Part shown: positions 2,466 through 59,166 of the stretch, in pieces | How positions within the stretch are numbered: position 1 is the stretch's first letter | Layout: each line of letters starts with the position of its first letter | From: Candidatus Aminicenantes bacterium | GTDB lineage: Bacteria; Acidobacteriota; Aminicenantia; Aminicenantales; Aminicenantaceae | Assembly (NCBI GenBank): GCA_030603565.1 | Contig: JAUVXM010000007.1 | Span: 176-64,175, forward strand | DNA: 64,000 nt | Reading direction: 5' to 3' | The notes under the pieces: generated by a model | The model's input: the letters and a program-made list of their open reading frames with translations, nothing else | Databases searched by the model: none | What the model was told of the DNA's origin: nothing | Position numbers and translations under genes: made by a program

Positions 2466-2556
2466 GCTTTTCACCTTTCCATTTACTATTTTCCATTTTC
2501 TAAGTAACATAAACATCGACATTTTTATTTATAATTCAGGAGAACCTGAATTATAA

Positions 2557-3858
2557 ATGGAGGATAGATTGCGAAAAGCTAAAAGTTTAGTTCTGACCGG
2601 GATTTTTATCAGCTTATTGTGTCTATCAGCAGCCGCTCAAAGCGATCAGCAAGCAATTAAGGAGGAAATAGAACTTATCAACCTGGAGATTCTCCATCTG
2701 GGGTTAAAATGGACTGCGGGAGAGACGTCTCTCAGTTACCTTAGTAAAAGCGAAAAAGTGAAACGATTGGGTAGATATTACCCCAGAAGAGGCAAGGAAG
2801 AGGACTTATTGTTTATAGAGCCCCTATCTTTACTTCCAAACAAAATTGACTGGCGAGACATTGGCGGAAAGAATTATATAACTGTAATAAAAGATCAGGG
2901 AGACTGCGGCAGCTGCTGGGCTTTCTCAACTGTAGGTGTTATTGAAGCTAGGTATAATATTGAAAATGGGATGTACTTTACCCAATTGGATCTTGATTCA
3001 AATAGGGTCGTATTTCCAAAATTGATGCCTCTGACCCCTCGTATCCTCGCTCTTGATTATCCTGACCTCTCTGAACAGGATTTAATATCTTGTTCAACTG
3101 CTGGAGATTGTAATGGAGGCTGGGAGTCTGATGCCCTGATATATATTAAAAGCCGGGGAGTCGTTTCTGAAAATTGTTTCCCGTATGAGGCAAAAGATGT
3201 GAACTGTGATATTTGTGTGGATTGGAAGAATAAATTGACAAAAATTAAAAGATGGGGTTGGGTTACTAGAGCTTCTGTTGATAAAAAAATAATAAAGACC
3301 GCATTGCAGGATGGTCCCTTGATATTTTATTTGGAGGTCTATTCTGATTTTTATAATTATCGATCAGGGATTTATGAGCCGCTTCCCAGTGCCGTATATG
3401 AGGGGGATCACTCTATAATTTTAATCGGTTATGATGAGAATGATGATTGTTGGATATGCAAGAATTCCTGGGGAACAGATTGGGGCGAGGATGGATATTT
3501 TAAAATAAAATTCGGAGTATGTGAGACAGGCACTTATGTGATGAAGGCTGGAGGAGTGACTATGGCCAATAAAGCCCCTTTTCTTGACCCGATTCCTGAT
3601 CAAAATGTTAAGGAAGGAGAGGAGTTGAGCTTACTTATTACTGCCTCTGACCCTGAAGGAGATAGTTTGACTTTTTCGGCGAAAAACCTTCCCTCAGGTG
3701 CTGTTTTAAGTAGCTCCGGCCTTATTAAATGGACTCCGGAATATACTCAATCTGGTGAGTATATTATAAATATTATAGTAAATGATGGTTCTCTGGATGA
3801 TTCTAGGGATATGAAGATCACAGTAATCAATGTGAAGCAGGGAAAAGGAAAATACTAA
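2557..3858 (+). CDS. Secreted papain-family (C1) cysteine peptidase with C-terminal cadherin-like/Ig-like domain
   Basis: Signal peptide; catalytic Cys motif QGDCGSCWAFS; His/Asn region GDHSIILIGYD...NSWGTDWGEDGYFKI; C-terminal segment PDQNVKEGEELSLLITASDPEGDSLTFSA...VNDGSLDDS typical of cadherin-like repeats. Confidence 0.85.
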   Translation: MEDRLRKAKSLVLTGIFISLLCLSAAAQSDQQAIKEEIELINLEILHLGLKWTAGETSLSYLSKSEKVKRLGRYYPRRGKEEDLLFIEPLSLLPNKIDWRDIGGKNYITVIKDQGDCGSCWAFSTVGVIEARYNIENGMYFTQLDLDSNRVVFPKLMPLTPRILALDYPDLSEQDLISCSTAGDCNGGWESDALIYIKSRGVVSENCFPYEAKDVNCDICVDWKNKLTKIKRWGWVTRASVDKKIIKTALQDGPLIFYLEVYSDFYNYRSGIYEPLPSAVYEGDHSIILIGYDENDDCWICKNSWGTDWGEDGYFKIKFGVCETGTYVMKAGGVTMANKAPFLDPIPDQNVKEGEELSLLITASDPEGDSLTFSAKNLPSGAVLSSSGLIKWTPEYTQSGEYIINIIVNDGSLDDSRDMKITVINVKQGKGKY

Positions 3859-3870
3859 GGAGTAAGGGCT

Positions 3871-4500
3871 ATGAAACTAATTAGAGTGCTGGTTTTAGTT
3901 CTCATATTTTTAATTCTAAATTCAGATTCAGCTTTTGGTGACAGCAGCTTATATCTCTTCGGATTGGGAAATTTTATAAGAGAAGCTGGGGGAGAAAGCG
4001 ATTATGAAGCAGGGACAAATGATTTTCCTATTTCTTCTTCACATCAGACATTCGGCTTTGGGGCCGGCTTCAGCAAAGATTTCGGTCATTTTTTTTTGGG
4101 ACCGGAAGTAAGTTATAACCTGAATGGGACAACGACCCTAACCGACCCCTCTGATAATGACACTGTTAATATTAATACATATAAATTTGCCTCGCTGTTT
4201 TTTAATCTGGGATTTAACCTGGTGAATTCGGATTTGCTTCGCTTGTATATTAATGGAGGAGGCGGTGTAAGCTATAGCTTAAATACAGATTCTAGGACCT
4301 ATACTTCTCAAATGGGGTATGAGACTCAGATCTCTCCTCCGGATAGAAAGTTTCCTCTCTCAGTTTTTGGCGGAACCGGACTTGACTTTAAGATATCTCC
4401 TAACCTAAGTATTATCCTGAGCGGCCGTTATCAGTATATTGACTTTAAGCAGCCTCAGACAATGATAATCGTTTTCGCAGGAGTTGCGATTTTTCTATAA
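3871..4500 (+). CDS. Small outer-membrane beta-barrel protein (OmpA-like/porin-family barrel), secreted
   Basis: Signal peptide, alternating amphipathic beta-strand pattern, Gly/aromatic-rich, C-terminal aromatic end (…IFL). Confidence 0.5.
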   Translation: MKLIRVLVLVLIFLILNSDSAFGDSSLYLFGLGNFIREAGGESDYEAGTNDFPISSSHQTFGFGAGFSKDFGHFFLGPEVSYNLNGTTTLTDPSDNDTVNINTYKFASLFFNLGFNLVNSDLLRLYINGGGGVSYSLNTDSRTYTSQMGYETQISPPDRKFPLSVFGGTGLDFKISPNLSIILSGRYQYIDFKQPQTMIIVFAGVAIFL

Positions 4501-4501
4501 T

Positions 4502-4697
4502 CCTGAACTATTCATAAAAATTGCAAATGATGTACTCAAAAAAAAACAATAACTAATTTTATCATTGGCACTTTTTACCTTTCAGGCGAGCCGATTTTAC
4601 CGCATCTGCTTTGTTGCAGCGGATTCGCGGTGAAATACCACAGCTTCATCCTCTGCGCCTCACATCTACGGCAACCTCGACTCGTGAATAATCCAGG
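4502..4697 (+). repeat. MITE-like composite repeat copy 1: degenerate left TIR (CCTGAACTATTCATAAAAA) followed by an A-core structured module (4571-4697) ending GTGAATAATCCAGG
   Basis: The sequence recurs at 6686-6804, 16361-16493(-), 17750-17873 and 58914-59047(-) with >85% identity by eye. Confidence 0.85.
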
Positions 4698-4785
4698 ATA
4701 GTGATGTTGAAAATAATGAATATTTAAATGTTTTGTTTTTTTCTCGTCCTGCTTTTCCTGGATTTCCTTTTTTTTTTGAAAAGTT

Positions 4786-4820
4786 GTTGTGAAGCTAAAA
4801 AGAAGATAATATAATATCCT
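4786..4820 (+). promoter_or_regulatory. Candidate sigma70-type promoter for tkt (TTGTGA -17 bp- TATAAT)
   Basis: ttgtgaagctaaaaagaagataatataat lies ~30 nt upstream of the tkt start region. Confidence 0.3.
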
Positions 4821-4824
4821 TTCT

Positions 4825-6690
4825 TTGCTGGAATTTATAAAAATTTACAGGGATGGAGTGGATTTAATGGAAAAAAAAGAAATTTTAGGACTTGTAGCAA
4901 AAAAACTGCGTATTCATGCTTTAAAAATGACTTCAAAAGCCGGCTCCGGTCATCCAACAACGTGTATGTCCATGGCGGAATTAGCAGCATGTTTATTTTT
5001 TGATGAGATGCAGTATAATATCAACGACCCTTTTGACTGGGCCAATGATGAACTGGTTCTTTCTAAAGGACATGCTGCCCCCATCCTCTGGGCTGCTTAT
5101 GCAGAAGCCGGGATAATTCCTATTGAAGATCTGATGAACTTGCGAAAAATTAATAGTCCGCTCGAGGGTCATCCCACTCCCCGTATGAAATGGATTAAAG
5201 CGGCCACAGGCTCGCTCGGACAGGGACTTTCCGTAGGAGTTGGAATGGCAGCTGCTCTGAAGCTGGCGAAGTCTCCCAGGAAAGTTTATGTTGTAATGGG
5301 AGACGGAGAGTGCGCTGAAGGTTCGGTTTGGGAAGCAGCCAACACTGCTTCTTATTTAAACCTGGACAATCTTTACGCCATAGTTGATATAAACCGCCTG
5401 GCCCAATCGGAAGCTACTATGCACGGGTTTGACCTTGCTGCCTATGAGAGAAAATTTAAGGCTTTCGGGTGGGAAGTTATCAAAATCGACGGGCATAAGG
5501 TTGCGGGTATACTCCAGGCTTTTACAGATGCACGCAAATCGAGAGGACCGACGGCTTTGCTGGCAAAAACCATTAAAGGCAAGGGAGTTAGTTTCCTTGA
5601 AGATAAAAACGGTTGGCATGGTAAACCGCTTAACCAAGAGGACCTGCAAAAAGCCTTGGATATGCTTGGTCCCATGCCGGATCTGGATGCAAAGCAATTT
5701 GTCCGTAAACCGGATAAAGTTAAAGGTCCCGGATTTTCAAAGGAATTTGATTTTAAAAAGAATATATATTCAAAAGACACTGCCACACGGCGGGCCTATG
5801 GGAACGCTTTAGTCAACCTGGGCAAAGCCGACATAAGGGTTGTTTCTATCGATGGAGATGTAAAGAACTCCACCTATGCGGAGGATTTTTTTAAAGCTTT
5901 TCCAAAGAGGTCTTTTCAGGGTTATATTGCCGAGCAGAACATGGTGGGAATGGGAATCGGGATGGCAGCTAAAGGATTTATTCCTTTTATGGCAACGTTT
6001 TCGGCATTTTTAGGTAGGGCACATGACCAGATAAGGATGGCGGCATATTCGAATTCAAACATTAAACTAGCTGGTTCTCATGCAGGTATCAGCATAGGTG
6101 CTGATGGTCCTTCTCAAATGGGGCTGGAAGACCTTGCTATTTTCACCCCGATTCCGGGATGTGCTGTGCTTTATCCATGTGATGCCTATTCCGCTGAAGC
6201 CTGTGTTGAGTCTATGGCTAGGTATAATGGCATGGCTTATATCCGGACTACTCGACCTGCAACTCCGCTGCTGTATGATAAAAAAGAAAAATTCTCTATT
6301 GGCGGCTCAAAAGTTTTAAAAGAAAGTAAAAAAGATGCAGTGACTGTAATTGCTGCCGGGATAACAGTATTTGAAGCTTTAAAGGCATATGAAGAACTTA
6401 AAGCAGAGGGTATTTTTATCCGTATCATAGATGCTTATTCAATTAATCCGCTGGATAAAGATAATATTATAAACCAGGTTGCTTCTGCCGGGAAAAAGGC
6501 AGTAGTAGTGGAAGACCATTACGCGGTAGGAGGTTTGGGAAGTGCAGTGGCGTCTGTTTTGGGAGGGAAAGCGGAATTTATCCATTTGGCTGTAAAAGAT
6601 CTTCCGCGTTCAGGGAAACCGGAAGAATTAATGGACAAATATGGGATATCTGCTTCTCATATTGTAGAGGCCGTGAAAAAACTAGCCTGA
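4825..6690 (+). CDS. tkt: Transketolase (single-chain, N-terminal TPP domain plus C-terminal Pyr/transketolase domains)
   Basis: GHPTTCMSMAELAACLF and GDGECAEGSVWEAAN TPP-binding motifs; C-terminal pyrimidine-binding and TK_C-like regions. The stop TGA lies inside the repeat TIR. Confidence 0.9.
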   Translation: MLEFIKIYRDGVDLMEKKEILGLVAKKLRIHALKMTSKAGSGHPTTCMSMAELAACLFFDEMQYNINDPFDWANDELVLSKGHAAPILWAAYAEAGIIPIEDLMNLRKINSPLEGHPTPRMKWIKAATGSLGQGLSVGVGMAAALKLAKSPRKVYVVMGDGECAEGSVWEAANTASYLNLDNLYAIVDINRLAQSEATMHGFDLAAYERKFKAFGWEVIKIDGHKVAGILQAFTDARKSRGPTALLAKTIKGKGVSFLEDKNGWHGKPLNQEDLQKALDMLGPMPDLDAKQFVRKPDKVKGPGFSKEFDFKKNIYSKDTATRRAYGNALVNLGKADIRVVSIDGDVKNSTYAEDFFKAFPKRSFQGYIAEQNMVGMGIGMAAKGFIPFMATFSAFLGRAHDQIRMAAYSNSNIKLAGSHAGISIGADGPSQMGLEDLAIFTPIPGCAVLYPCDAYSAEACVESMARYNGMAYIRTTRPATPLLYDKKEKFSIGGSKVLKESKKDAVTVIAAGITVFEALKAYEELKAEGIFIRIIDAYSINPLDKDNIINQVASAGKKAVVVEDHYAVGGLGSAVASVLGGKAEFIHLAVKDLPRSGKPEELMDKYGISASHIVEAVKKLA

Positions 6691-6804
6691 ACTATTCACG
6701 AGCCGATCTTACCGCATCTGTTGCAGCGGATTCGCGGTGAAGGACCACAGCTTCATCCCCTGCGCCTCGCATCTACGGCAACCTCGACTCGTGAATAGTT
6801 CAGG
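6686..6804 (+). repeat. MITE-like repeat copy 2 (left TIR fused directly to A-core; right end GTGAATAGTTCAGG)
   Basis: CCTGAACTATTCACGAGCCGATCTTACCGCATCTG...CTCGTGAATAGTTCAGG; TGA at 6688-6690 is the tkt stop codon. Confidence 0.85.
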
Positions 6805-6863
6805 CTGATAAAATTCCGTAAATAGAGAATTGCAGGAAAGCGGGGAATAAGGATTAGAGAAGA

Positions 6864-6950
6864 AAAGGCGGAAAATAGTAAATGGAAAAAACCGTGAAAT
6901 GTGAATCGTGAAACGTGGAATATGGGAAAAAACAGAAAATGGGAAATCCT
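6864..6950. repeat. Purine-rich 'GAAAATAGTAAATGGAAAA/CCGTGAAATGTGAA' repeat (family E) copy
   Basis: Near-identical strings occur at 11101-11285, 22010-22032, 23981-24009 and 35130-35215. Confidence 0.7.
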
Positions 6951-7674
6951 GTTTATTCTTTTTTTCCTGGTTTCTCTGACTGTTTCTCTTTCTGCTCAGG
7001 CTGAAGAGGGGGTTGTAACTGCCGTATATGATGGAGATACGATCAAAGTAAGATTTGATAAGGGAAACAGTGAAGTTGTCAGGCTTATCGGGATTAATTC
7101 TCCAGAGCTTACGGACTCTCGGGAGAAGGTGCGGTTTATAGCTTTTATGGCAAAGAGATTCTCCTATTCTATATTGTATGGACAAAAAGTAAAACTGTCT
7201 TACGATTGGGAGAAACGGGACAAATTCGGGCGCCTGCTTGCATATGTTTTTTATAACTCTAAGCTTTTTAATGAGTTTATTCTAAGCCGGGGATTTGCTT
7301 ATGTTTTTTTAAAGTACCCTTTCAGAGAAGATTACAGGCAGAGGTTTGTTACAGCTTACCGTAATGCAAGGAAAGCAGAAGCAGGCCTGTGGAAAAAACA
7401 GCCGTATCCTGTTATTGTGCCTGAAAAATGCAAGAATCATATCGGGGATTTGATGAGGGTAAGGTTTTTTTGTGCAGATATTCAGCAAAAGGGGAAATTG
7501 ATATTTCTAGGTGCTTTAGAACAGGGTTTTTCCGCAATCATTAACATAAGAGATAAACATCATTTTTCGGATATCCAGAATCTAAAAGGAAGAGTGATAA
7601 CAGTGACTGGGTTTGTTGAGGAATATAGAGGCAGCTTGCAGGTGGTTCTGTTTATGCCATCCCAAATAACCTGA
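6922..7674 (+). CDS. Secreted thermonuclease (staphylococcal nuclease/SNase-like) with C-terminal OB-fold-like domain
   Basis: SNase motifs VVTAVYDGDTIKVRF...VRLIGINSPE...FGRLLAYVF. Signal peptide MGKNRKWEILFILFFLVSLTVSLSAQA. The ORF-track start at 6901 lies inside repeat family E, so the start is more likely the Met at 6922. Confidence 0.8.
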   Translation: MGKNRKWEILFILFFLVSLTVSLSAQAEEGVVTAVYDGDTIKVRFDKGNSEVVRLIGINSPELTDSREKVRFIAFMAKRFSYSILYGQKVKLSYDWEKRDKFGRLLAYVFYNSKLFNEFILSRGFAYVFLKYPFREDYRQRFVTAYRNARKAEAGLWKKQPYPVIVPEKCKNHIGDLMRVRFFCADIQQKGKLIFLGALEQGFSAIINIRDKHHFSDIQNLKGRVITVTGFVEEYRGSLQVVLFMPSQIT

Positions 7675-7830
7675 AGTATTCATAAAAAAATGGCGATGTT
7701 TTTATTATTAATTTCTTTTCAGCGATATTCAAGATTTTTTCGAGAATGATTATTTTAACGATTTTCTCGTTTTCATTTTTAATTTTAATCGCCATTTTTT
7801 TACCTTACAGGCGAGCTGATCTTACTGCTT
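7669..7830 (+). repeat. MITE-like copy 3, variant/partial: TIR CCTGAAGTATTCATAAAAAAATGGCGAT, AT-rich inner part, ATCGCCATTTTTTACC plus truncated A-core
   Basis: Internal inverted repeat AAAAAATGGCGAT / ATCGCCATTTTTT. TGA at 7672-7674 is the nuclease stop. Confidence 0.7.
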
Positions 7831-7911
7831 TTAAGTTGAAATTGTTTGACATGGGGATTTGATAAACGTTAATATTTGTTAACCTGGCATGGGAATAATA
7901 TTTTGTGAGGT

Positions 7912-10900
7912 GTGTTTATGAAAAATAAAAAATTGATTCCGGTTTTTTGGGTAGCATTAATATTCTTAACAGCGATTTCTTCTCAAGGAAAACAGTCTTC
8001 TGAAAAAAAGGCATTCAAATACAATGAAGATGTGTATAAAGCTATGCAGTGGCGCTGTATAGGCCCTTACCGCGGAGGAAGAGCTACTGCGGTGGCTGGG
8101 ATACCGGGGGAACCCTATACCTATTATTTCGGCTCAACAGGGGGAGGAGTATGGAAGACAGAGGATGGCGGGATTAATTGGACTCCGGTTTCAGACGGTT
8201 TTTTTAAGACTGGTTCGGTAGGTGCGATTGCTGTATCAGAGTGGGATTCTAATGTCGTGTATGTGGGAATGGGAGAGGCGCCCATCCGGGGTAATGTATC
8301 TCACGGGGATGGTATATATAAATCAACAGATGCCGGAAAGACCTGGAAACATATAGGGCTTTCAAATACCAGCCAGATATCCAGGATAAGGATACACCCA
8401 CGTAACCCCGACCTTATATATGTTGCTGCTCTCGGCCATATTTATGGACCGAACAAGGAGCGGGGGATATTCAGATCCAAGGATGGAGGGCAGACTTGGG
8501 AGAAAGTGCTGTTCCGAAGTGATAAGGCTGGTGCTATAGATCTGATCCTTGCTCCAAATAATCCAAGAATTATTTTTGCATCTATTTGGGAAGCGGGGCG
8601 TACTCCCTATAGTTTAAAAAGCGGTGGCCCCGGGAGCGGGCTTTTTAAATCATCTGACAGCGGGGACAGCTGGGTAGAAATTTCCCGGAACCAAGGGCTT
8701 CCCAAAGGTGAGCTTGGAAAGATCGGAATAACGGTATCGCCAGCAAAGATTGGTAGAGTTTGGGCTATTATAGAGGCTAAAAACGGGGGGGTTTTTCGTT
8801 CGGATGACGAAGGTGAGACCTGGACTAAAGTGAATGAAGAGCGCAGACTGCGTCAGCGGGCCTGGTATTACAGCCGGATCTATGCAGATCCAAAGAGCAG
8901 CGAAACTGTATATGTTTTAAATACTGGGCTTTACCGCTCAGTCGATGGTGGAAAGACCTACTCTTCTATCAGGGTTCCTCATGGTGACAATCATGACCTC
9001 TGGATCGCGCCGGATAATCCGGACCGGATGATAAATTCAAATGACGGCGGAGCTAATGTTACTTATAATGGAGGAATATCGTGGACAGAGCAGGATAATC
9101 AGCCCACAGCCCAATTTTATCATGTCACAACAGATGAGCGGTTTCCATATTGGGTATATGGTGCCCAGCAGGATAACAGCACTGTCAGAATTGCCAGCCG
9201 GACTTCAGGAAGCGGGATTGACAAGACATACTGGCATGCAGTAGGCGGGGGGGAAAGTGGATACATTGCACCCAGGACTGATAATCCTGATATTGTTTAT
9301 GCTGGAAGTTACGGAGGCCTTATTACTCGTTGGGATTATAAAACCCGTCAGAGCCGGATTATATCACCCTGGCCCGAAAATCCAATGGGATGGGGTGCCG
9401 GTGACCTGAAATACAGGTTTCAATGGACTTTTCCGATCCTGGTTTCAAGATTTGACCCTGATGTTTTATATTGCGCTGCTCAGGTTCTTTTTAAATCCTA
9501 TAATGAGGGACAGAGCTGGACTGTAATTAGCCATGACCTTACAACCAATGATAAAAGCAAGCAGAAAAAATCCGGAGGGCCAATTACCTTTGATGATACC
9601 AGCGTGGAATACTACTGTACTATTTTTTCTCTGGCTGAGTCTGTTTTTGACCCGAATATCCTCTGGGTAGGAACGGATGACGGGCTTGTTCATATTACCA
9701 AAAATGGAGGAAATTCATGGCAGGATATAACTCCTAAACAGATGCCGAAATGGAGTCTTATAAGTATGATCGATACTTCGACTTTTGGGGCAGGGAGAGC
9801 ATTTATAGCTGTTGATAGGCATGAACTGGATGATTTTTCTCCTTATATTTATAAGACGGATAATTTTGGGATGACCTGGAAAAAGATAACCAATGGACTT
9901 CCTGAAAATACGTTTGTCCGGGTTGTCCGGGAAGATCCCGAACGCAAAGGCCTGTTATATGCAGGTACTGAGACGGGAGTATTCGTATCCTTTGATAGTG
10001 GGGAAAACTGGCAATCCCTTCAACTTAACCTGCCGGTTGTTCCTGTTCATGATATGGTTGTAAAAGAAGATGATCTGGTAATAGCTACGCATGGGCGTTC
10101 TTTTTGGATTTTAGATGACCTTTCCCCTCTGCAACAGCTTACACAGGAGGTATTAGGGTCAGATATTTTTCTATTCAGACCCATATCAGCTTACCGGATG
10201 GGGGGAAGAAGTTATCCAAGGACTAATATCGGCCAAAATCCTCCTTCCGGGTCGGTAATATATTATTACCTTAAAGAAACTTTAGATGAAGAAGTAACCC
10301 TGGAATTTTCAGATATGAAAGGGGATCTTATCAAAAGATTTTCCAGCCAGAAAAAAAGAGACAATGATGATCCTAACTCTCAGAGAAGTTTCCGCAGGAA
10401 GGGAAGCGGAGAAATTGTTTCCACCGATAAGGGGATGAACCGTTTTACCTGGAACATGAGATATCCGGATGCAGTTGAGGTTCCTGGTGCTGTTATGTGG
10501 GGGGGCATGCTCAGCGGGCCGATTGCGGTTCCGGGACAATATCAGGTCAAATTGATAGTTGGAGATAAATCAATGACCAGGACCTGGGAATGGAGGAAAG
10601 ATCCTCGAGTGAGGGCCTCCCAGTTTGATTTTTTAAGGCAATTTGATCTTCTTATAAAAATACGGGATGAGATAACTGAGGTAAATAAGTCTATCAATAG
10701 GCTGAGGAATATAAAAGATCAGATTAGGGAGCTTTTAAAAAAGATAAAAGTAGAGGAAAAAACCAAAGAAATTATCACTGCAGGTGAAACACTGCTTAAG
10801 AAACTGACGGAAATTGAAGATATGCTTATCCAATCAAAGTCAAAGAGCGGCCAGGACCCTCTAAATTATCCCATATTACTGGATAATAAAATCGCAGCAT

Positions 10901-11103
10901 TGGCCCGAGTAGTAGCGAGCGCAGATGCCCGTCCCACAGATCAATCATATCAGGTTTTTAAGGAATTATCTTCTAAAGCTAGTGCCCAGATGGGTTTGTT
11001 GAGATTAATAATTAAACGTGATCTTCCTGAATTTAATAAACTTGTAAGAAAGGAAGATATCCCGGCGATTATACTTAACTTAGATACCGGAAATAGGAAA
11101 TAG
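7912..11103 (+). CDS. Secreted VPS10/sortilin-like BNR (Asp-box) repeat beta-propeller protein with Lys/Glu-rich coiled-coil C-terminal tail
   Basis: Signal peptide; recurrent S-x-D-x-G-x-T-W Asp-box motifs (STDAGKTWKHIG, SKDGGQTWEKV, SVDGGKTYSSI, TKNGGNSWQDI) and W..IGP..GGR.T motif characteristic of the Sortilin-Vps10/GH74-like fold. Confidence 0.8.
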   Translation: MFMKNKKLIPVFWVALIFLTAISSQGKQSSEKKAFKYNEDVYKAMQWRCIGPYRGGRATAVAGIPGEPYTYYFGSTGGGVWKTEDGGINWTPVSDGFFKTGSVGAIAVSEWDSNVVYVGMGEAPIRGNVSHGDGIYKSTDAGKTWKHIGLSNTSQISRIRIHPRNPDLIYVAALGHIYGPNKERGIFRSKDGGQTWEKVLFRSDKAGAIDLILAPNNPRIIFASIWEAGRTPYSLKSGGPGSGLFKSSDSGDSWVEISRNQGLPKGELGKIGITVSPAKIGRVWAIIEAKNGGVFRSDDEGETWTKVNEERRLRQRAWYYSRIYADPKSSETVYVLNTGLYRSVDGGKTYSSIRVPHGDNHDLWIAPDNPDRMINSNDGGANVTYNGGISWTEQDNQPTAQFYHVTTDERFPYWVYGAQQDNSTVRIASRTSGSGIDKTYWHAVGGGESGYIAPRTDNPDIVYAGSYGGLITRWDYKTRQSRIISPWPENPMGWGAGDLKYRFQWTFPILVSRFDPDVLYCAAQVLFKSYNEGQSWTVISHDLTTNDKSKQKKSGGPITFDDTSVEYYCTIFSLAESVFDPNILWVGTDDGLVHITKNGGNSWQDITPKQMPKWSLISMIDTSTFGAGRAFIAVDRHELDDFSPYIYKTDNFGMTWKKITNGLPENTFVRVVREDPERKGLLYAGTETGVFVSFDSGENWQSLQLNLPVVPVHDMVVKEDDLVIATHGRSFWILDDLSPLQQLTQEVLGSDIFLFRPISAYRMGGRSYPRTNIGQNPPSGSVIYYYLKETLDEEVTLEFSDMKGDLIKRFSSQKKRDNDDPNSQRSFRRKGSGEIVSTDKGMNRFTWNMRYPDAVEVPGAVMWGGMLSGPIAVPGQYQVKLIVGDKSMTRTWEWRKDPRVRASQFDFLRQFDLLIKIRDEITEVNKSINRLRNIKDQIRELLKKIKVEEKTKEIITAGETLLKKLTEIEDMLIQSKSKSGQDPLNYPILLDNKIAALARVVASADARPTDQSYQVFKELSSKASAQMGLLRLIIKRDLPEFNKLVRKEDIPAIILNLDTGNRK

Positions 11104-11285
11104 AAAATAGTAAATAGTAAATAGAAAAACCGTGAAAAGTGAAATGGGAAATGTAAGGAAAAGCAGTAAATAGTAAATGGAAAATGGGATGAAAAGGCGG
11201 AAAATGGAAAATAGAAAATGGGGGAGAAGAAGTGAATCGTAAAACGCAAAATCTGAAAAAAACAGGAAAAACAGGCAGGAAGTCA
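11101..11285. repeat. Family E purine-rich repeat array (tandem degenerate AAATAGTAAATGGAAAATGG units)
   Basis: Direct reading; it overlaps the VPS10-like stop and the mis-called start of the next ORF. Confidence 0.7.
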
Positions 11286-16264: not shown

Positions 16265-16329
16265 AATTAAAATTCTAAGTTATTTGAATGAAACAATTTA
16301 CAATTTGCATTTTACTTTATATTATATAT

Positions 16330-16611
16330 ATCGACATTTCTTATGAATAGTCCAGAATAACCTGGATTATTCACGAGATAAGCTTGCCGTAGATACGAGG
16401 CACAGGGTATGAAGCTGTGGACTCCACTGCGAATAGCCTGTAACGAAGTAGATGCGGTAAGATCATCTCGCCTGAAAGGTAAGAAATGTCGATTATTAGT
16501 AAAGATTATATCGAAAACGAAATGATTAATTATCTATCGGCAGTAATCAATATAAAATATTGGCATAAAAGAACTATTAAACATATCGACATTTCTTATG
16601 AATAGTCCAGG
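16330..16611. repeat. Composite repeat block: right-TIR (16330-16355), A-core in minus orientation (16361-16493), AT-rich conserved spacer, right-TIR (16585-16611) abutting the RBS of the downstream gene
   Basis: ATCGACATTTCTTATGAATAGTCCAGG occurs twice. The spacer TTATATCGAAAACGAAATGATTAATT is also present at 59060-59090. Confidence 0.85.
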
Positions 16612-16626
16612 TTAAAGGAGAATAAC

Positions 16627-17616
16627 ATGGTTGATGTAAGCACTTCTTATATGGGTATGAAGTTAAAAAACCCTATAATTGTAGCTAGCAGTGATTTATC
16701 CCGGGATGCGGATGGAGTGAAAAAATGTGCTGATGCTGGGGCCGGAGCAGTAGTATTAAAATCTATTTTTGAAGAACAATTTTTTGCAAGCAGCAATATT
16801 TCGGAGAATAGATTTCCTCTTCATCCTGAAGCTCTGGATTATTTGCGAGCCGGGGGGTTGTTGGAATACGGTCCCGATGAAATGTGCCGGGAAATCGATA
16901 AAGCTAAAAAAGATGTCGAAATCCCTATCATTGCGAGTGTAAACTGTAGGACACCTTCTCTTTGGCCAAGGTTTGCCAACCAGGTGGAGGAAGCCGGAGC
17001 TGATGCGCTTGAGCTGAATATTTATGACCTTCCGCTCAAATTGGATATTTCCGGCTCAGAACATGAAAATAATTACACTAAAATTTTAAAGGAAGTAAAA
17101 AAGGAAGTTGTTATTCCAATTTCCATTAAGCTTACCCCAGAGGTGTCATCGCTTCCTAATTTAAGTAAAAAGTTATCTCAGGCTGGGAGTGATGCCTTTG
17201 TTTTTTTCAACTGGTTCCTGGAACCTGATATCGATATTGATAACATCAGGACTATCAGTCGTAAAGGAAAAGGTAATTTTAACCATTCGTTAAGATGGGT
17301 GGCTCTTTTGGCCGGAAGGATTGATGCTGATATTTCTGCATCTGGAGGAGTAGGCAGGGCTGATGATGTAATAAAACAAATACTGGCTGGAGCTTCTGCA
17401 GTACAAGTCTGTACACTTTTTTATAAGAAAGGCCTTTCTGAGATACAAAGACTGTTGCAAGGCCTGGAAGCCTGGATGGAGAAAAAGAAGTTTAATTCTG
17501 TGGCGGATTTTAAAGGAGAGCTGTCTTTTAAAGAACAAGAATTGAGTGTTAAAGGCCTGGGCGAGGCTGAAAGTTATTTCAGAACACAGTATTTGAAGGT
17601 ATTTAAAGTCAAGTGA
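16627..17616 (+). CDS. Dihydroorotate dehydrogenase-like TIM-barrel flavoprotein (DHO_dh/DHPD superfamily); exact substrate unclear
   Basis: N-terminal MKLKNPIIVASSDLSRDADGVKKCADAGAGAVVLKSIFEE resembles class-1 DHOD/PreA-type FMN-binding barrels; glycine-rich C-terminal phosphate-binding region SGGVGRADDV. Confidence 0.65.
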   Translation: MVDVSTSYMGMKLKNPIIVASSDLSRDADGVKKCADAGAGAVVLKSIFEEQFFASSNISENRFPLHPEALDYLRAGGLLEYGPDEMCREIDKAKKDVEIPIIASVNCRTPSLWPRFANQVEEAGADALELNIYDLPLKLDISGSEHENNYTKILKEVKKEVVIPISIKLTPEVSSLPNLSKKLSQAGSDAFVFFNWFLEPDIDIDNIRTISRKGKGNFNHSLRWVALLAGRIDADISASGGVGRADDVIKQILAGASAVQVCTLFYKKGLSEIQRLLQGLEAWMEKKKFNSVADFKGELSFKEQELSVKGLGEAESYFRTQYLKVFKVK

Positions 17617-17621
17617 AATAT

Positions 17622-17949
17622 CCTGAATCATTCATAAAAAATGTCGATATGAATGACATCTCTTTTAAATCAATACTTTACACTGATTCCTAAGACATAA
17701 CAATTGACCATTTTGTTTTTGTTGTAATTTATATTTGTAATCGACATTTTTTACTCTACGAGCGAGCCGATCTCTCCGCATCTGCTTCGTTACAGCGGAT
17801 TCGCGGTGAAATACCACAGCTTCATCCCCTGCGCCTCGCATCTGCAGCAACCTCGACTCGTGAATAATCCAGGTTAATAAAAATCTGAAGCGAGCTCAAG
17901 TCACACCTGAATTTCATCCACACCGCCATTTTTTTATGAATAGTTCAGG
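17622..17949. repeat. Fully repeat-filled convergent intergenic region: left TIR (17622-17648), spacer, A-core (17750-17873, +), family C module (17878-17917), right TIR (17924-17949)
   Basis: The TIR starts 5 nt after the upstream gene's stop, and the last TIR ends exactly at the stop codon of the convergent M14 gene (TAA at 17950-17952 on the minus strand). Confidence 0.85.
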
Positions 17950-20556
17950 TTATTCTGTTTCAGGATATAATAATGCGTTCAGCAGGAATTTGTAAGTTCC
18001 GTGTGACTGGGCGCGGTGCTGGCAACGGAATCCGATTAAGATAATATGACCTTGCTTGTGTTTCAGGTCAACCACAGCTGCTTTTCTGGCAATGGTATCT
18101 TCTCCTAAAAGCCAGCCACTAAGTAACACATCTTTTTCCGGATAGCTGGCAACTACAGTTCTGTCCCATTCTCCGGAAGGAATTCTGGTTCTGATCGCGA
18201 GGCTGCGGGAGAACATGGCAGCTGCTTCTGAAGGCAGGCCGTATCCGATGGGAGACCGTTTATTCACTTTAATTTTTAAGAGTGATGTCGGGCATAGGAA
18301 TTTACTTCTATCAACATTTTCTAAGGCATTACTGGCGGGAGATTTAAATTCTTTAAAGACAAGGTTGCAGGCATCATTTAAAGTAACAAGGATACCGCCT
18401 TCAGCGACAAATTTCTTAAGCGCCTCAACACCTTCCTTACCTATGCCTCCGGAATATTCCGGGGGGCCTTCGCTATAGTAGCGGGCATAACGGGAACCCG
18501 GGCTTGGTTTTCCTAATTTAATAATATCTGCGCTTTCACTGGCAAAAACAATAACGTCATATTTTGAATTGAAATCCACCTTCTTTTTCTTTGTGCCTTT
18601 GAAGTCTTTATTGTGAAGGGTAGTAAAGGGGATTTCCAGGTCGTCCAGAACATAGCGGGTCCAACCTTCGTCCATGTTTGACTTCCATGACTGGTAAAGA
18701 CCTACCCGGTGTTTTTTCAAGGGACTTTTCTTAATCTCAGAGATGTCATCAAGACCATAAGCATTAAGGTGCCATTTTTCCTGAAGAGCAGGCAGAGCTT
18801 TCTGGACTTGGGGGGTGTTTTCAACAATAAAACTACCAAAACAGGCGTGAAAATCATCTCTGCTAATTCCTGAATTGGAGCGATAGATCTCCGGCTTATA
18901 CTTCAGGAGAGAAAATACGGCACTGTAGGCTGCATTTTTTTTGGAATCCAGGACTATATATTTTGAGGAGGTTTCAGGCGCTGCAGTCTCGGGATAGGGG
19001 ATGCTTTCCAGTTTTTCAAGGTCTGCCTTAAAAGAACGGTCGATCTGAGCTGAGGCCACTCCCATCTGAAGAGGTAGGGTCCATCCGGCGTTATCATAGG
19101 GGGGGATAGGAGGGCCGCCAGGGTATTGACGCATATCAGGGTAGACCTGTTTTTCGAGCAGTGCCTGCGCATAAGGCCGGTAAGGTTGAGACATAAGAAC
19201 GACAAAAGAACCGGCAGGGTAGACTTTGCCGTCTGCCGTAAATTCATTTTTTGCTTGATGTATTTCCACTCCTCCGAGTTTCAGTATCTCCAGCATGCGC
19301 AGAGTTGTGGGATAGTCGCGCTGGTTTTTGGTGATAACAAAAGCATATGGCTGCCCTTCTTTTTGAATTTCAATAGCATCTTTACACATTTTATAGAAGT
19401 TAAAAAGCAGGTCTTCCTTGTGCATGTATGCGGTTTTGATAAGGCTCATGGAAAGAGTAAGTTCATAATCGACTATGTCTCTGAGGCGCCACCAGCCACC
19501 GGGCCAGGGATCAGGAAACTGCATTCTTTTTTCCGTATAAGACTTTGGTATCTCGGTAGGGTCGATGTAAATAGGAGAAGCGATTTTTACGGATGCCATT
19601 TCACTGAGTATGCCGATACAATTGTGCAGCCAGGAGGTGTCATCACAGGCGCCGATCCACCAACCAGTAAAGCTGCGGCCGTGTACTACTCCTTTGAAAT
19701 CATTTTTCTGAAGGTCATAAGACATATTCATGCCGCATAGAGCCACTCCGCGCCATATAAGTGGGTGTATTGTGGGTACAGGAGGGTTCATGAAAGGAGG
19801 AATAAATAGTCTTGCCCCGGTAGAGCCCATCTGATGTTCATCGATATGGATCTGAGGGATCCAGTCATGATAAAGCACTTTAGTTATAGCCTGTGTTTCA
19901 AGGAGGTTGAACATGAACCAGTCCCGATTATCATCGTGCCCGGCATAATGGTGATAAAGCCAGGGCATACTGCCGCCTTCATATTTGGTGCCGACATATT
20001 TTCTATACCACTCAGTCACCATCTGTTCGCCGTCCGGGTTAGTACTCGGGGAGAGCAGGACGATAACATCGTTTAAGACTTTATCTGTGTCATAGGGAGT
20101 TTTCCCTGTTACCAGATTGTAAGCAAGCTCCATAGCCATTTGGGAGGATGCGATCTCAGTGGAATGGAGGTTGCAGGTGAGAAGGACAATTGCTTTTCCT
20201 TGTTTTGCAAGCTTGCGAGCGTCATCCGGGGTTAAACCGCTGGCATCTCGCAGCTTCCGGGTTATTCCTTTAAAAGTATCCAGCTGGTCCATATTCTCTT
20301 TGCTTGTGATAACAGCTAAAAGCATGGATTTACCCAGGGTAGTCTTGCCGATATTTAAAAGCTTGATTTTTTCTGATTCTTCATCAAGTTTTTTAAAATA
20401 CGCCGTAATCTGGCTGTAGTCTGCCAGTTTATAGTCAGCTCCTACCTTATGCCCCAGAAAATCTTCCGGGGAAGTCTGGGCTGTTATAATTGCAGGTAGA
20501 ATAAGGAATATGATTGATAAAGATAAGGTCAGTTTTTTTAACATAAATCCCTCCAA
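17950..20556 (-). CDS. Secreted M14-family zinc carboxypeptidase-like protein (long form with C-terminal class-I glutamine-amidotransferase-like domain)
   Basis: Signal peptide; M14 signatures NLHSTEIAS (HxxE), NPDGEQ, HDDNRDWF (DxNRxF/W), and a second zinc His region; about 870 aa. Confidence 0.75.
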   Translation of the reverse strand: MEGFMLKKLTLSLSIIFLILPAIITAQTSPEDFLGHKVGADYKLADYSQITAYFKKLDEESEKIKLLNIGKTTLGKSMLLAVITSKENMDQLDTFKGITRKLRDASGLTPDDARKLAKQGKAIVLLTCNLHSTEIASSQMAMELAYNLVTGKTPYDTDKVLNDVIVLLSPSTNPDGEQMVTEWYRKYVGTKYEGGSMPWLYHHYAGHDDNRDWFMFNLLETQAITKVLYHDWIPQIHIDEHQMGSTGARLFIPPFMNPPVPTIHPLIWRGVALCGMNMSYDLQKNDFKGVVHGRSFTGWWIGACDDTSWLHNCIGILSEMASVKIASPIYIDPTEIPKSYTEKRMQFPDPWPGGWWRLRDIVDYELTLSMSLIKTAYMHKEDLLFNFYKMCKDAIEIQKEGQPYAFVITKNQRDYPTTLRMLEILKLGGVEIHQAKNEFTADGKVYPAGSFVVLMSQPYRPYAQALLEKQVYPDMRQYPGGPPIPPYDNAGWTLPLQMGVASAQIDRSFKADLEKLESIPYPETAAPETSSKYIVLDSKKNAAYSAVFSLLKYKPEIYRSNSGISRDDFHACFGSFIVENTPQVQKALPALQEKWHLNAYGLDDISEIKKSPLKKHRVGLYQSWKSNMDEGWTRYVLDDLEIPFTTLHNKDFKGTKKKKVDFNSKYDVIVFASESADIIKLGKPSPGSRYARYYSEGPPEYSGGIGKEGVEALKKFVAEGGILVTLNDACNLVFKEFKSPASNALENVDRSKFLCPTSLLKIKVNKRSPIGYGLPSEAAAMFSRSLAIRTRIPSGEWDRTVVASYPEKDVLLSGWLLGEDTIARKAAVVDLKHKQGHIILIGFRCQHRAQSHGTYKFLLNALLYPETE

Positions 20557-21705: not shown

Positions 21706-21979
21706 GGACCGTGCTAGATGGGGAGTTAGCGGCATCCTGTAACTCACAATCCGCTATAGTGAGGTCGAATTCCCTGCCGAGGCTTGGTTTTTTCTGGTCT
21801 GTACCTTTGTAAGTAGTGTTGAAGGTGTGGGTCCTGTGCAAAGGATACTCTGTAAACCCCGTCAGGACCGGGAGGTAGCAGCGGTAGCAGAGATGTTCCT
21901 TGTGCTGCAGATCAACCTCACCTGAGCTAACTGCACTGGAAACGCAGGGGAGACTTAGTCAAAGCCGGGTGCACGGTCC
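21706..21979 (+). ncRNA. ffs: Signal recognition particle RNA, long form with Alu domain (scRNA/ffs)
   Basis: 5' GGACCGUGCUAGAUGGGGAGUUAGCGG...CAAUCCGCUAUAG...CGAAUUCCCU matches the Bacillus-type Alu domain. Helix 8 reads GUCAGGACCGGGAGGUAGCAGCGGUAGCAG (consensus GUCAGGUCCGGAAGGAAGCAGC). 3' ...GAGCUAACUGC...GGGUGCACGGUCC pairs with the 5' end. Confidence 0.88.
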
Positions 21980-22146
21980 TTAAAGATTCATTGCTACATT
22001 GTTTAAAACCTGAAAATAGTAAATGGAAAATGGCTCAGAATCGATCTGAGGAGGTCGCTTATTTATAAATGAATATTTTTGCCACCCTTCAGCTCATTAG
22101 GGACTATTGTTAAAACCCTAATATTATGCTTAGCAAAAAAATAGTG

Positions 22147-23955: not shown

Positions 23956-24064
23956 ATGAAAATAATATTATCATATAATTGAGAAATGTGAAATGTGAAA
24001 TGTGAAAGGAGTTCCTGTCACTATTTCCATTTGCTAAGTAAGGTTCCTATGATATAATCAGCTC

Positions 24065-25339
24065 ATGCTGGATGCAAAATATGTTCTGGAAAATCCCTCT
24101 CTTGTAATAAAAAAAACTGCTTTAAGGGGAATAGATATCGAGCTTAACGAGTTTCTGGGTCTTTCAGAAGAAAGAAAGGAATATCTGCAAAAAGTAGAGA
24201 GCCTTAGATTCAAATTAAACAAGTCTTCAAAACTTATCGGGCAGAAAAAAAAAGCAGGTGAGGATGCCGCGGTTCTTATAGGAGAGATGAAGAGCTTATC
24301 TGATGAGATAAAAAGAAAAGAAGAAAAGCTCAGAGAAGTGAATAAGAAGCTGAATAATATCCTCCTTTCTATCCCAAATCTTCCCCATAAGTCAGTTCCG
24401 GAGGGCTTAAACACAGAAAAGAATAAAGAAATCAGGCGATTTGGAAAGATGCCGGAATTTTCTTTCAAAGCAAAGCCTCACTGGGAAATCGGAGAATCCC
24501 TGGGGATATTGGATTTTAAACGGGCTGCAAAGATAACCGGTACTCGATTTGCTGTTTATCTTGGAGCCGGAGCAAGATTAGAGAGAGCTTTGATCAATTT
24601 TATGCTCGACATGCATACTAATGAGAAAGGATATAAGGAAGTTATTCCCCCCTTTATTGCTAATACTAATAGTCTTATCGGAACCGGAAACCTGCCGAAA
24701 TTTGAAGAAGACCTCTTTAAACTGAAGGATTATGATTGGTATATGATTCCCACAGCAGAAGTGCCTCTAACAAATTATTACCGGGATGAGATACTTGATG
24801 CCAAGATACTGCCTCAGAGATTTGTTGCATATACGCCTTGTTTTAGAAGTGAAGCGGGTTCATATGGAAAAGATATCCGCGGGCTTATCCGGCAGCACCA
24901 GTTTAATAAAGTCGAAATGATGAGTTTTGTTATGCCGGAAGATTCTTACTCGGAGCTTGAGTTCTTGACCAATGCTGCTGAAGAAGTCCTTAAAAGGCTT
25001 GGGCTGCATTACCGGGTTGTATCTCTATGCACCGGTGACCTAGGATTTGCAGGAGCTAAAACTTATGACCTTGAGCTCTGGATGCCTGACCGGAACGATT
25101 ATATTGAGATTTCCTCATGTACGAATTGTGAGGATTTTCAGGCCCGCCGGTCAAATATCCGTTTTAAGCGGGAAAAGAAGTCCAAGCCGGAGTTTGTGCA
25201 CACTCTAAATGGGTCTGGAGTAGCTTTAGGACGCACTGTAAGCGCCATACTAGAATGTTTTCAGCAGGAAGATGGATCAGTCCTTATTCCTGAAAAACTT
25301 CGCCCCTATATGGGAGATAAAAAGTTTATTAAGCCCTGA
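24065..25339 (+). CDS. serS: Seryl-tRNA synthetase
   Basis: N-terminal coiled-coil tRNA-binding arm, class II motifs ([26 protein letters not shown]; [10 protein letters not shown]). The stop TGA lies inside the repeat TIR CCTGAATTATTCACGAG. Confidence 0.95.
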
Positions 25340-25397
25340 ATTATTCACGAGGCGAGCTGAAATTCGGGTGTGGCTTGGGCTCGCTTCAGATTTTTAG
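25335..25397. repeat. Repeat fragment: TIR-like CCTGAATTATTCACGAG followed by inverted family C module (GCGAGCTGAAATTCGGGTGTGGCTTGGGCTCGCTTCAGATTTTT)
   Basis: Reverse complement of the AAAAATCTGAAGCGAGC.CAAGCCACACCTGAATTTCA module seen at 17878-17917 and 35379-35417. Confidence 0.7.
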
Positions 25398-25399
25398 CC

Positions 25400-25489
25400 G
25401 GAGGGATGGCCGAGTGGCTGAAGGCGGCGGTCTTGAAAATCGCTTCACGTGCAAGCGTGACGGGGGTTCGAATCCCTCTCCCTCCGCCA
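25400..25489 (+). tRNA. tRNA-Ser (anticodon TGA)
   Basis: Acceptor GGAGGGA/TCCCTCC, anticodon loop CTTGAAA, long variable arm, T arm GGGGG-TTCGAAT-CCCTC, CCA encoded. Confidence 0.9.
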
Positions 25490-25538: not shown

Positions 25539-25631
<93 letters not shown>

Positions 25632-33608: not shown

Positions 33609-33675
33609 TTTATGATATTTAGAAAATGGAAAATTAGGTTCTCTCAACTTTTTTTCAAACTTAAAAAAGTTATAA

Positions 33676-33833
33676 GGCATGGACACTGGTAAGTCCCTTC
33701 GAAAGACAGGGATTTCCCCCAGCTGGGAAATCCCTTCCTGTCCTCACAACGCTCTCCTCGAGATTCTCTCGAGGAACCATGCCCGCGTTGTTCCGGATGG
33801 CTTTCTCCGGGATTTACCAGTATCCATGCCAGC
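33676..33833. repeat. Family D hairpin element bounded by inverted repeats GGCATGGACACTGGTAA / TTACCAGTATCCATGCC
   Basis: Inner hairpins CAGGGATTTCCCCCAGCTGGGAAATCCC and CCTCGAGATTCTCTCGAGG followed by GAACCATGCCCGC. Paralog of 12761-12880; fragment at 58770-58815. Confidence 0.75.
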
Positions 33834-35091: not shown

Positions 35092-35100
35092 CTTAGGAGA

Positions 35101-35448
35101 CTTAATTATTCACGAGTCGAGGGTGCTGAATATGAGGAAAAGCGGAAAATAGTAAATGGTAAATGGGAAAAACCGTGAAATGTGAATTGTAAAATGTGAA
35201 ATGTTATGGTAAAAGATTTGTATCTTATGAAATTCTGATGTGGCTGAAGCGACATTGAAGATTTAGCCTTCTGATGAAGTTTTTCGAGGAAATCCGACGC
35301 AGTCGGACGCTGAGTATGTTTGACCCACGGACGGGGGGAGTTACGCAGGCGCCGAGAAAAACGAAGAAGAATGGCGTTAAAAATCTGAAGCGAGCGCAAG
35401 CCATACCTGAATTTCATTCATATCGACATTTTTTATGAATAGTTAAGG
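35101..35448. repeat. Composite intergenic repeat block: truncated A-core end (35101-35122, minus orientation), family E (35130-35215), family C (35379-35417), right TIR (35422-35448) abutting the gcvH RBS
   Basis: CTTAATTATTCACGAGTCGAGG; GGAAAATAGTAAATGGTAAATGGG...GTGAAATGTGAATTGTAAAATGTGAAATG; AAAAATCTGAAGCGAGCGCAAGCCATACCTGAATTTCAT; ATCGACATTTTTTATGAATAGTTAAGG. Confidence 0.8.
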
Positions 35449-58769: not shown

Positions 58770-59166
58770 CGGAGAAAGCCCTGTCTTTCGAAGGGACTTA
58801 CCAGTATCCACCCAACCCAGCTTCCCATTTGCACGAAGCAGAGCCACACCTGAATTTCATCACTTGTAATATAAGTAGTGAATGTCTATAGTGATAATGA
58901 AACTTAATATTAACCTGGATTATTCACGAGTCGAGGTTGCCGCAGATGCGAGGCGCAGGGGATGAAGCTGTGGTATTTCACCGCGAATGCGCTGCAACAA
59001 AGTAGATGTGGTAAGATCGTCTCGCTTGTAGAGTAAAAAATGTCGATTACAAATAAAAATTATATCGAAAACGAAATGGTCAATTGTTGTATCTTAGGAA
59101 TCAATGTAAAATATTGATTTAAAAAGAGGTATCGTACATATAGAAATTTTTTATGAATAGTTCAGG
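58770..59166. repeat. Composite repeat block upstream of ORF 59181: family D fragment, family C fragment (58835-58860), A-core in minus orientation (58914-59047), conserved AT-rich spacer, right TIR (59140-59166) abutting the RBS
   Basis: Near-identical in organisation to 16361-16611. Confidence 0.85.

Follow-up and report, generated by a model that had tools for sequence, protein, structure and literature searches.

Miniature elements with IS1380-family termini at gene stop codons in a Candidatus Aminicenantes genome

Introduction

A stretch of 64,000 nucleotides from a Candidatus Aminicenantes bacterium (contig JAUVXM010000007.1 of assembly GCA_030603565.1, positions 176 to 64,175), here called the window, contains dispersed repeats whose termini fall on or beside the stop codons of several genes, among them transketolase (tkt), an SNase-like gene and seryl-tRNA synthetase (serS). 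The locus raises the question of whether such repeats recognise the ends of genes, whether they have replaced the native ends, or whether a short insertion target and selection are enough to place them there. The repeats are identified here as MITEs (transposable elements of the miniature inverted-repeat kind) of the IS1380 family, and their association with stops is very probably explained by insertion at the target YTAR together with selection in a compact genome.

Results

Repeat termini at the stop codons of genes

A sequence-only reading of the window had noticed that the stop codons of three genes are the TGA in the first bases of a repeat terminus, and this was borne out in each case. 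The open reading frames (ORFs) of tkt, the SNase-like gene and serS end GCC TGA, ACC TGA and CCC TGA, and the TGA lies within CCTGAACTATTCA (6686-6698), CCTGAAGTATTCA (7670-7682) and CCTGAATTATTCA (25335-25347), respectively. The common terminus holding these stops is CCTGAAnTATTCA, and the tkt TGA makes up bases 3-5 of its terminus. Two genes with a terminus following the stop were likewise found as described: the M14 ORF on the minus strand (17950-20556), whose TAA (17950-17952) stands directly against a minus-strand terminus at 17937-17949, and ORF 16627-17616, whose stop is 5 nt ahead of a terminus at 17622. A sixth case, absent from that reading, is an outer membrane protein (OMP) beta-barrel gene (3871-4500), the TAA of which is 1 nt before a terminus at 4502. 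At up to 2 mismatches the window holds 32 occurrences of the terminus motif, against 9.7 expected, and none of 100 shuffles reached 32; about 20 termini are present, and the elements number about 10 in the 64 kb.

Termini were also observed on the start-codon side of genes, 11-15 nt upstream of ATG with only the Shine-Dalgarno sequence, or ribosome-binding site (RBS), in between (16611 before ATG 16627, 35448 before ATG 35460 and 59166 before ATG 59181). The first of these ends is 15 nt upstream of its ATG with only the RBS AAGGAG between, and all three elements span the entire gap between the adjoining genes. Because termini stand before start codons as well, the elements fill gene junctions rather than seek stops as such.

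Structure and distribution of the elements

The repeats are MITEs of 119-350 bp without a transposase gene. Between a type-2 end and a type-1 end, the canonical form has, in this order, a B hairpin rich in AT, the 9-nt linker CCTKWMAGG and a GC-rich A hairpin; the type-1 end reads CCTGRAYTATTCACGAGTCGAGG (short form CCTGGATTATTCACGAG) and the type-2 end CCTGRAYTATTCATAAAAAATGTCGAT (short form CCTGAAYTATTCATAAAAAATGTCGAT), and the terminal inverted repeats (TIRs) are 13-17 bp long, with CCTGRAYTATTCA at both ends. The commonest complete form is about 253 bp, and 29 terminus pairs have the modal spacing of 250-259 bp. Deletion and mosaic derivatives exist, for example the 119-bp copy at tkt, in which the A module alone stands between two termini and arms of 31 nt (6684-6714 and 6776-6806) are 87% complementary. 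One ORF alone falls inside an element (35106-35417, minus strand), and it is a product of mechanical ORF calling in the repeat. The elements of the window are listed in Table 1 together with the genes whose stops they provide and with the insertions at the serS stop of related loci.

Table 1. Coordinates of MITEs, termini and affected genes in the window, and insertions at the serS stop in related loci (L numbers)
Feature	Position	Composition or domains	Flanks and relation to genes
Two degenerate facing termini	2527..2558	ATTTATAATTCAGG AGAA CCTGAATTATAAAT	Directly at start codon of ORF 2557-3858
MITE, 196 bp	4502..4697	Type-2 end, shortened B module, A module, type-1 end	Begins 1 nt after OMP TAA (4498-4500)
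Transketolase gene tkt (+)	4825..6690	Pfam Transketolase_N, Transket_pyr, Transketolase_C	Last codon GCC and stop TGA (6688-6690) are element sequence
Short-form MITE, 119 bp	6686..6804	CCTGAACTATTCACGAG at both ends	CTAG (6682-6685) / CTGA (6805-6808), target duplication
SNase-like gene (+)	6901..7674	Pfam SNase	Stop TGA (7672-7674) in terminus; TAA of flank ATAA (7666-7669) out of frame
Truncated composite	7670..7831	Type-2 end, B module (arms 7683-7697, 7788-7802), CCTTACAGG, 20 nt of A module	
Solo type-2 end	16320-16356		
Canonical MITE, 251 bp	16361..16611	Type-1 end, A module, CCTGAAAGG, B module, type-2 end	ATAA / TTAA
Canonical MITE and partial element	17622..17949	Canonical MITE of 252 bp (17622-17873), partial element (17874-17949)	
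Seryl-tRNA synthetase gene serS (+)	24065..25339	Pfam Seryl_tRNA_N, tRNA-synt_2b	Ends FIKP; stop TGA (25337-25339) in terminus
Truncated element	25335..25396	Type-1 end, hairpin module GCGAGC...GCTCGC	Fills serS to tRNA-Ser spacer; bases 3-5 are the serS stop
Composite, 349 bp	35100..35448	Left terminus degenerate, ACTTAATTATTCACGAG; right terminus a type-2 end	Between gcvT (stop 35089-35091) and gcvH (ATG 35460)
Canonical MITE, 253 bp	58914..59166		TTAA / TTAG; right end 14 nt upstream of ATG 59181
serS stop, L159		Type-1 end	Abutting TAA
serS stop, L116		Type-2 element	TGA in terminus; same codon as in the window, different element
serS stop, window and L115		One common insertion	
serS stop, L122 and L152		15-nt solo termini	Flanked by YTAA
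serS stop, L118		CCTGGATTTTTCAGG	

The composite after the SNase-like gene has lost its right terminus, and the identical truncated right junction is found in L113. The pair of elements at 17622..17949 fills the gap between the convergent genes 16627-17616 (+) and 17950-20556 (-), and the hairpin module of the truncated element at serS recurs at 17878-17934 and 35378-35434. Upstream, a tRNA-Arg gene (CCG, 2390-2465) is followed by the back-to-back degenerate termini at 2527-2558.

A scan of a genome collection holding one genome per species, queried with the type-1 end only, returned at least 111 loci, most of them from Candidatus Aminicenantes metagenome-assembled genomes (MAGs). None of the fetched loci overlaps the window, and the element modules are 80-98% identical between the window and those MAGs; region 35171-35417 has 91% identity to L059, and the canonical element at 58914..59166 is 84-87% identical to copies in L039, L052, L071 and L030. 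Element copies differ from each other by about 15%.

A 4-bp target duplication and termini of the IS1380 family

The length of the target duplication was tested on 58 complete elements. Perfect 4-bp direct repeats flank 17 of the 58, against 3.6 expected, and no enrichment was seen for repeats of 2, 3 or 5 bp. Target sites duplicated in this way are TTAA, CTAA, TTAG and CTAG, at times TTAT or TAAA, giving the consensus YTAR. In a logo of the flanks of 201 termini, the bases outside CCTG are T in 72% at -3, A in 73% at -2 and A or G in 81% at -1.

From this logo, with TA followed by R, a TA duplication as made by IS630 or Correia-like MITEs was first read, and a related possibility is that the repeats are repetitive extragenic palindromic (REP) or REPIN palindromes moved by a RAYT (Y1) transposase; in the Aminicenantes relative L197 a gene with a weak Y1_Tnp match (IS200/IS605-type, 3832-4224) adjoins the SNase gene. 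A TA duplication is ruled out by the count of 2-bp repeats, which were 3 with 2.8 expected, as set against the 17 of 4 bp. The REP/REPIN class was rejected on the grounds that a target duplication is present and that the termini match insertion sequences (IS) of the DDE type, no search for a Y1 transposase having been made on the window. With termini identical over 13-17 nt to IS1380-family DDE elements that make 4-bp CTAG or CTAA duplications, an origin from REP or IS630-like elements is scarcely credible.

The autonomous elements bearing these termini were found in several genomes. L003, a Prevotella MAG, and L020, a Lachnospiraceae MAG, carry elements of 1665-1683 bp bounded by CCTGAATTATTCAC and CTCGTGAATAATTCAGG, with transposases of 441-442 aa that match PF13701 (E = 4e-155) and the IS1380 model NF033539 (E = 1e-112). 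In L020 (1620-1752) the last ~69 bp of the element, right terminus included, are tandemly duplicated. An Acidobacteriota MAG, L036, holds a 1620-bp element with the left end CCTGGATTATTCACGAGG, the right end CCTGCTTAATTCATCAGAG read inward, and a CTAG/CTAG duplication. A database search with the L036 transposase gave 120 near-identical IS copies (84-90% identity), a source of independent CTAG and CTAA insertions, and L200-L206 are metagenome loci carrying close relatives of this transposase. The elements of L036 and L201-L205 measure 1618-1620 bp and have the left terminus CCTGGATTATTCAC and CTAG or CTAA flanks; the 4-bp repeats are identical in L036, L201, L203 and L204 and mismatched (CTAA/CTAG) in L202, while the right flank of L205 is missing at a contig end and L200 and L206 show one end only.

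Over 13-17 nt the MITE termini match the ends of L003, L020, L036 and L200-L206 exactly, the match to L003 and L020 extending over 17 nt; these IS1380-family elements come from Prevotella, Lachnospiraceae and Acidobacteriota MAGs and from soil metagenomes. A target duplication of 4-5 bp is a feature of the IS1380 family (ISfinder). The MITEs duplicate 4 bp, with one 5-bp case at 4502-4697, and the autonomous copies duplicate CTAG or CTAA. Since both the terminus, CCTGGATTATTCAC in L036 and L201-L205, and the 4-bp duplication are common to the window repeats and to IS1380-family elements (NF033539, PF13701), the window repeats are MITEs of the IS1380 family. They differ from their autonomous relatives in the interior, as the A, B and C hairpin modules were not found in the autonomous copies examined, and the blastn matches listed for the window include none to L003, L020 or L036.

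Filled and empty sites at tkt and the OMP gene

The element at tkt is present at the orthologous site in L112 and L114, as in the window, and absent from L113, L195, L197 and L198. The element-free allele of L113, whose Tkt is 79% identical, reads GTGAAAAAACTGATATAATTAAG / AAAAAACTGATATAA and encodes KKLI before its stop, with the SNase start 11 nt on. The window junction reads AAAAAA CTAG, element, CTGA TAAAATT, and the flanks are CTAG and CTAA in L114 (95% identical) and CTAA and CTGA in L112 (93%). From the comparison of these four loci it follows that the insertion duplicated CTRA inside the Leu-Ile codons, and the frame now reads CTA GCC TGA. In the outgroups L195, L197 and L198 tkt and SNase are still neighbours, 28-46 nt apart, with TAA stops and without the element. 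At the OMP gene the site is empty in L112 (CTATAATAATGTTGAG), and comparison with the window reveals the 5-bp duplication ATAAT/ATAGT.

The window Tkt ends in KKLA. Among 120 orthologues, 11 end at the window position, whereas 87 are longer by 2 or 3 residues and typically finish in KKL[IV]KKK; as the element-free allele shows, the insertion replaced 1 to about 5 C-terminal residues. Those orthologues that bear a source name are labelled Candidatus Aminicenantes, which places the window in that lineage. The Transketolase_C profile is complete at residue 613 of 621 and the domain is intact. A short Tkt tail was considered as a marker of the element and rejected, since P0059 and P0020 lack the element and stop at a native TAA but are just as short.

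Tails of the SNase-like protein and SerS

The SNase-like protein ends in QIT in the window and in QIRE in the element-free L114, a difference of one residue. In L113 and L112 the site holds a decayed remnant, CCTATTTTATGAATAATCCAGG, in which the TGA is lost, and element DNA is translated for a further 20-30 residues of the ORF (~5420-5537 in L113 and ~4230-4379 in L112).

SerS was compared in 80 related loci from metagenomes (L115-L194). Eight residues follow PYM in the window and 7-9 in the listed relatives, a few being longer, so that the tail is of normal length. The serS stop is a recurrent insertion site for different element types (Table 1). Many element-free serS genes natively end ACC TGA or TCC TAA. 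In L156, L146, L177, L169 and L193 no terminus was found at up to 2 mismatches, yet serS ends in CCTGAA and AT-rich sequence, for example ACCTGAATAATCGCC; this could be the native Thr/Ser-stop context or very old decayed termini. Downstream of serS lie two tRNA-Ser genes (anticodons UGA and GCU) at 25400-25489 and 25539-25631. Most of the Aminicenantes loci fetched have serS and tRNA-Ser in this order, and in some relatives the serS stop abuts or overlaps the tRNA (spacer -1 to 1 nt). A REP-like palindrome, GTAGGGGTTTGATTCATCAAACCC, is repeated several times 3' of serS in L135, L144, L148, L149, L187 and L189, which belong to other Aminicenantes lineages.

These comparisons bear on the two explanations that the sequence-only reading had offered, each of them right in part. 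It had proposed, first, insertion of extreme precision into a target such as a stop codon plus CC; this is not supported in that form, as the CC is the first two TIR bases of the element itself, as in the autonomous IS1380 relatives, and the target is the duplicated YTAR. Its second proposal, that insertion replaced the native C-termini, survives on a very small scale for tkt (KKLA in place of KKLI or KKL[IV]KKK); the SNase-like protein differs by one residue from an element-free allele that may be secondary, and SerS has a tail of normal length. Targeting that goes beyond YTAR and selection against gene disruption is weakly suggested at best.

RNA hairpins and possible host use

Folded as RNA, the tkt copy (6686..6804) forms a long hairpin of -58.6 kcal/mol (z = -7.6), and the element at 58914..59166 reaches -79.8 kcal/mol (z = -6.2). 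Such predicted stability raises the possibility that the elements are kept at gene ends by host use, as 3' hairpins that stabilise mRNA, separate operon segments or modulate translation termination. It would accord with modules 80-98% identical across MAGs whose proteins are only 70-95% identical, with elements inside the likely operons tkt-SNase and gcvT-gcvH, and with the retention of the tkt copy in three diverged relatives. However, a scan for intrinsic terminators (GC stem and T run) over 4400-8000 placed none at the elements, the four sites found comparing with 3.3 expected from shuffles, and a scan of the window against Rfam at gathering score matched no family at the elements, only the signal recognition particle (SRP) RNA and three tRNAs. 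Orthologous sites are moreover freely without the element (L113, L195-L198), and among the copies many have been truncated, lie nested or survive only as solo termini, as expected for decaying selfish DNA. Host use is thus possible but unlikely to be what keeps the elements at gene ends; it would explain retention but not the YTAR duplications, and would supplement the MITE account without displacing it.

Offsets between stop codons and termini

For the window and the fetched related loci pooled, 93 termini facing an incoming ORF of at least 100 codons were scored for the offset of the stop, counted from the C of CCTG. The stop abuts the terminus (offset -3) in 17 of the 93 ends and is the TGA of CCTGA (offset +2) in 8; offset -4 was seen in 3 ends, +13 in 1, and any other offset from -12 to +30 in at most 2 each. 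With a uniform spread about 1 end would be expected at two given offsets (P = 5e-26). Three of the eight +2 cases are in the window and two more at orthologous sites (L112 tkt, L116 serS), and TGA donation is therefore rarer elsewhere than the window suggests.

The capacity to supply a stop differs between the two end types. Within type-2 ends a TGA is found at +2 in 69 of 93 and a TAA at +13 in 92 of 93, whereas type-1 ends mostly begin CCTGGA and have the TGA in only 28 of 125. TAR stands at -3 in 49% of both types.

Coding sequence makes up 90.5% of the window; many of the gaps between genes measure 2-30 nt, and most of those reaching 200 nt or more are occupied by elements. A count of YTAR sites lying outside ORF bodies and elements gave 67, and 9 stop codons form YTAR with the base before them, from which about 12% of tolerated insertions would strike a stop by chance.

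Discussion

Insertion at YTAR and selection in a compact genome

On this evidence the MITEs are derived from, and most likely moved by, a DDE transposase of the IS1380 family, presumably acting in trans within Aminicenantes, with selection as the probable filter on where insertions are kept. YTAR holds TAA or TAG, and surviving insertions would often be those into a YTAR made of a stop codon and the base before it. As the target contains a stop and about 90% of the genome is coding, insertions should survive mainly at stops, in the last few codons or in short spaces between genes. On insertion at a stop, the left copy of the duplication (TAR) would retain the stop and abut CCTG, as in the -3 class. 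An insertion in the last few codons, the source of the +2 and +13 classes, may be tolerated if translation ends almost at once, which in one frame would be at the TGA of CCTGA and in a second frame, for type-2 ends, at a TAA lying 13 nt into the terminus, in TTCATAA. Once an insertion is fixed, the opening bases of its terminus would form part of the gene's coding sequence, and selection on the stop should preserve them. We consider it very likely that an IS1380-derived MITE inserting at YTAR, together with selection, explains the association with stops.

Several observations weigh against this explanation. Only 17 of the 58 duplications are perfect, and some junctions have none, such as serS in the window (AAGC) and in L116 (ACTC/TTAA); many copies are old or remodelled. 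No IS1380-family transposase was found in the window, and when the L003 transposase was searched by tblastn against ~1.08 Mb of fetched DNA, the only matches were L003, L020, L036 and, as a fragment, L068, and no MAG with the label Aminicenantes was among their sources. The element-free SNase allele of L114 may be secondary, since the more distant L112 and L113 carry remnants there, and its tail is then not necessarily ancestral. Furthermore, the 17 ends abutting a stop exceed the 11 expected under a YTAR null (p=0.045), which was built from crude ORF-based gene calls in one window; in a reconstruction null, where the element is removed and a YTAR drawn at random in the local gap, 3.9 were expected and 5 of 40 observed, a noisy outcome given the crude calling of ORFs and the presence of other elements nearby. 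Gene ends may be mildly preferred in addition.

This excess is one of two findings favouring a transposition machinery that recognises gene ends through stop context, terminating ribosomes or a longer target including the stop. The other is serS, where the stop was struck repeatedly by different types (L159, L116 and the window with L115; remnants in L122, L152 and L118). Yet the excess is not large, and very short native gene gaps are left out of account by the null; some two thirds of the ends that face a gene are 5-150 nt from a stop, and the ends at 16611, 35448 and 59166 lie next to start codons and RBSs. In addition, the few autonomous copies examined make CTAG or CTAA duplications without stop codons in their flanks, as seen without a systematic check. 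Recognition of gene ends is accordingly judged improbable, and insertion at YTAR with selection is retained.

A more far-reaching idea is that the termini are shaped as portable stops for the last codons of essential genes. With the target TAR followed by TGA at +2 and TAA at +13, a third of type-2 ends have every reading frame closed. The transposon piggyBac is known to excise precisely, and if the IS1380-type enzyme did so too, the elements might be reversible editors of C-termini and operon-internal hairpins that the host came to use. We regard this as a speculation with little chance of being right.

Relation to known elements

The MITE family is new but the kind of event is already known, as MITEs overlapping the 3' ends of genes have been described, for instance in Coxiella; a full-text literature search returned no paper joining Aminicenantes with "miniature inverted". 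The Coxiella burnetii elements QMITE1 and QMITE2 share 1-50 bp with the 3' ends of functional genes, changing C-terminal residues and altering length little, and every affected functional gene has its insertion at the 3' end according to the authors (PMC5896051). The two systems are alike in being bacterial MITEs with very stable hairpins at gene 3' ends. They are unlike in host phylum, sequence and parent IS, and no stop-regenerating YTAR target was reported for QMITEs, whereas for the Aminicenantes elements the IS1380 parent family and the 4-bp duplication are identified.

Correia elements have termini unrelated to these and a TA duplication, in contrast to the 4-bp YTAR duplication in Aminicenantes. 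Also called NEMIS, they are abundant mosaic MITEs of ~100-160 bp in Neisseria, next to or inside genes and transcribed as hairpins, some with stops in all frames; in their closeness to genes Correia, RUP and related elements behave in a similar way (PMC2229807). The IS1380 transposases are treated as distant prokaryotic relatives, used as an outgroup, of piggyBac, which duplicates TTAA (PMC10140906, PMC10813416). The 4-bp TTAA target is a likeness to the Aminicenantes MITEs, in which TTAA is the commonest duplication, although piggyBac is eukaryotic and its transposases are much larger. Like the present elements, E. coli REPs are extragenic palindromes a few nt from stops with possible effects on translation termination and mRNA decay. 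REP sequences in E. coli reportedly lie within 15 nt of stop codons, with proposed effects on translation termination or mRNA (Liang, Rudd and Deutscher 2015). In general, REPs are short, lack a target duplication, are tied to RAYT transposases and come after the stop without supplying one.

For annotation, these results mean that the stops of housekeeping genes in an uncultured phylum, those for transketolase and seryl-tRNA synthetase, are element sequence, and that the SNase tails of close relatives differ much in length where repeats have inserted, decayed or been read through. These repeats should be allowed for when genes are called and orthologues aligned in Aminicenantes. A target motif containing a stop and a compact genome suffice to give an appearance of stop-codon targeting, which calls for caution in similar cases elsewhere.

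Other repeats and features

A second, unrelated repeat family consists of GGGAAATCCC palindromes, found in the window at 33675-33831 and 58750-58813 and 3' of the SNase gene in L112 (~4380-4520); a window copy is 98% identical to L055 1921-2077. A large bacterial SRP RNA is encoded at 21709-21976 (172 bits). Clusters of the motifs AAATAGTAAATGGAAAA and GTGAAATGTGAA are intergenic and mostly upstream of genes (6855-6921, 11094-11223, 21996-22035, 23960-24008 and 35129-35202), one of them inside the gcvT-gcvH element, and could be a regulatory motif or another small repeat.

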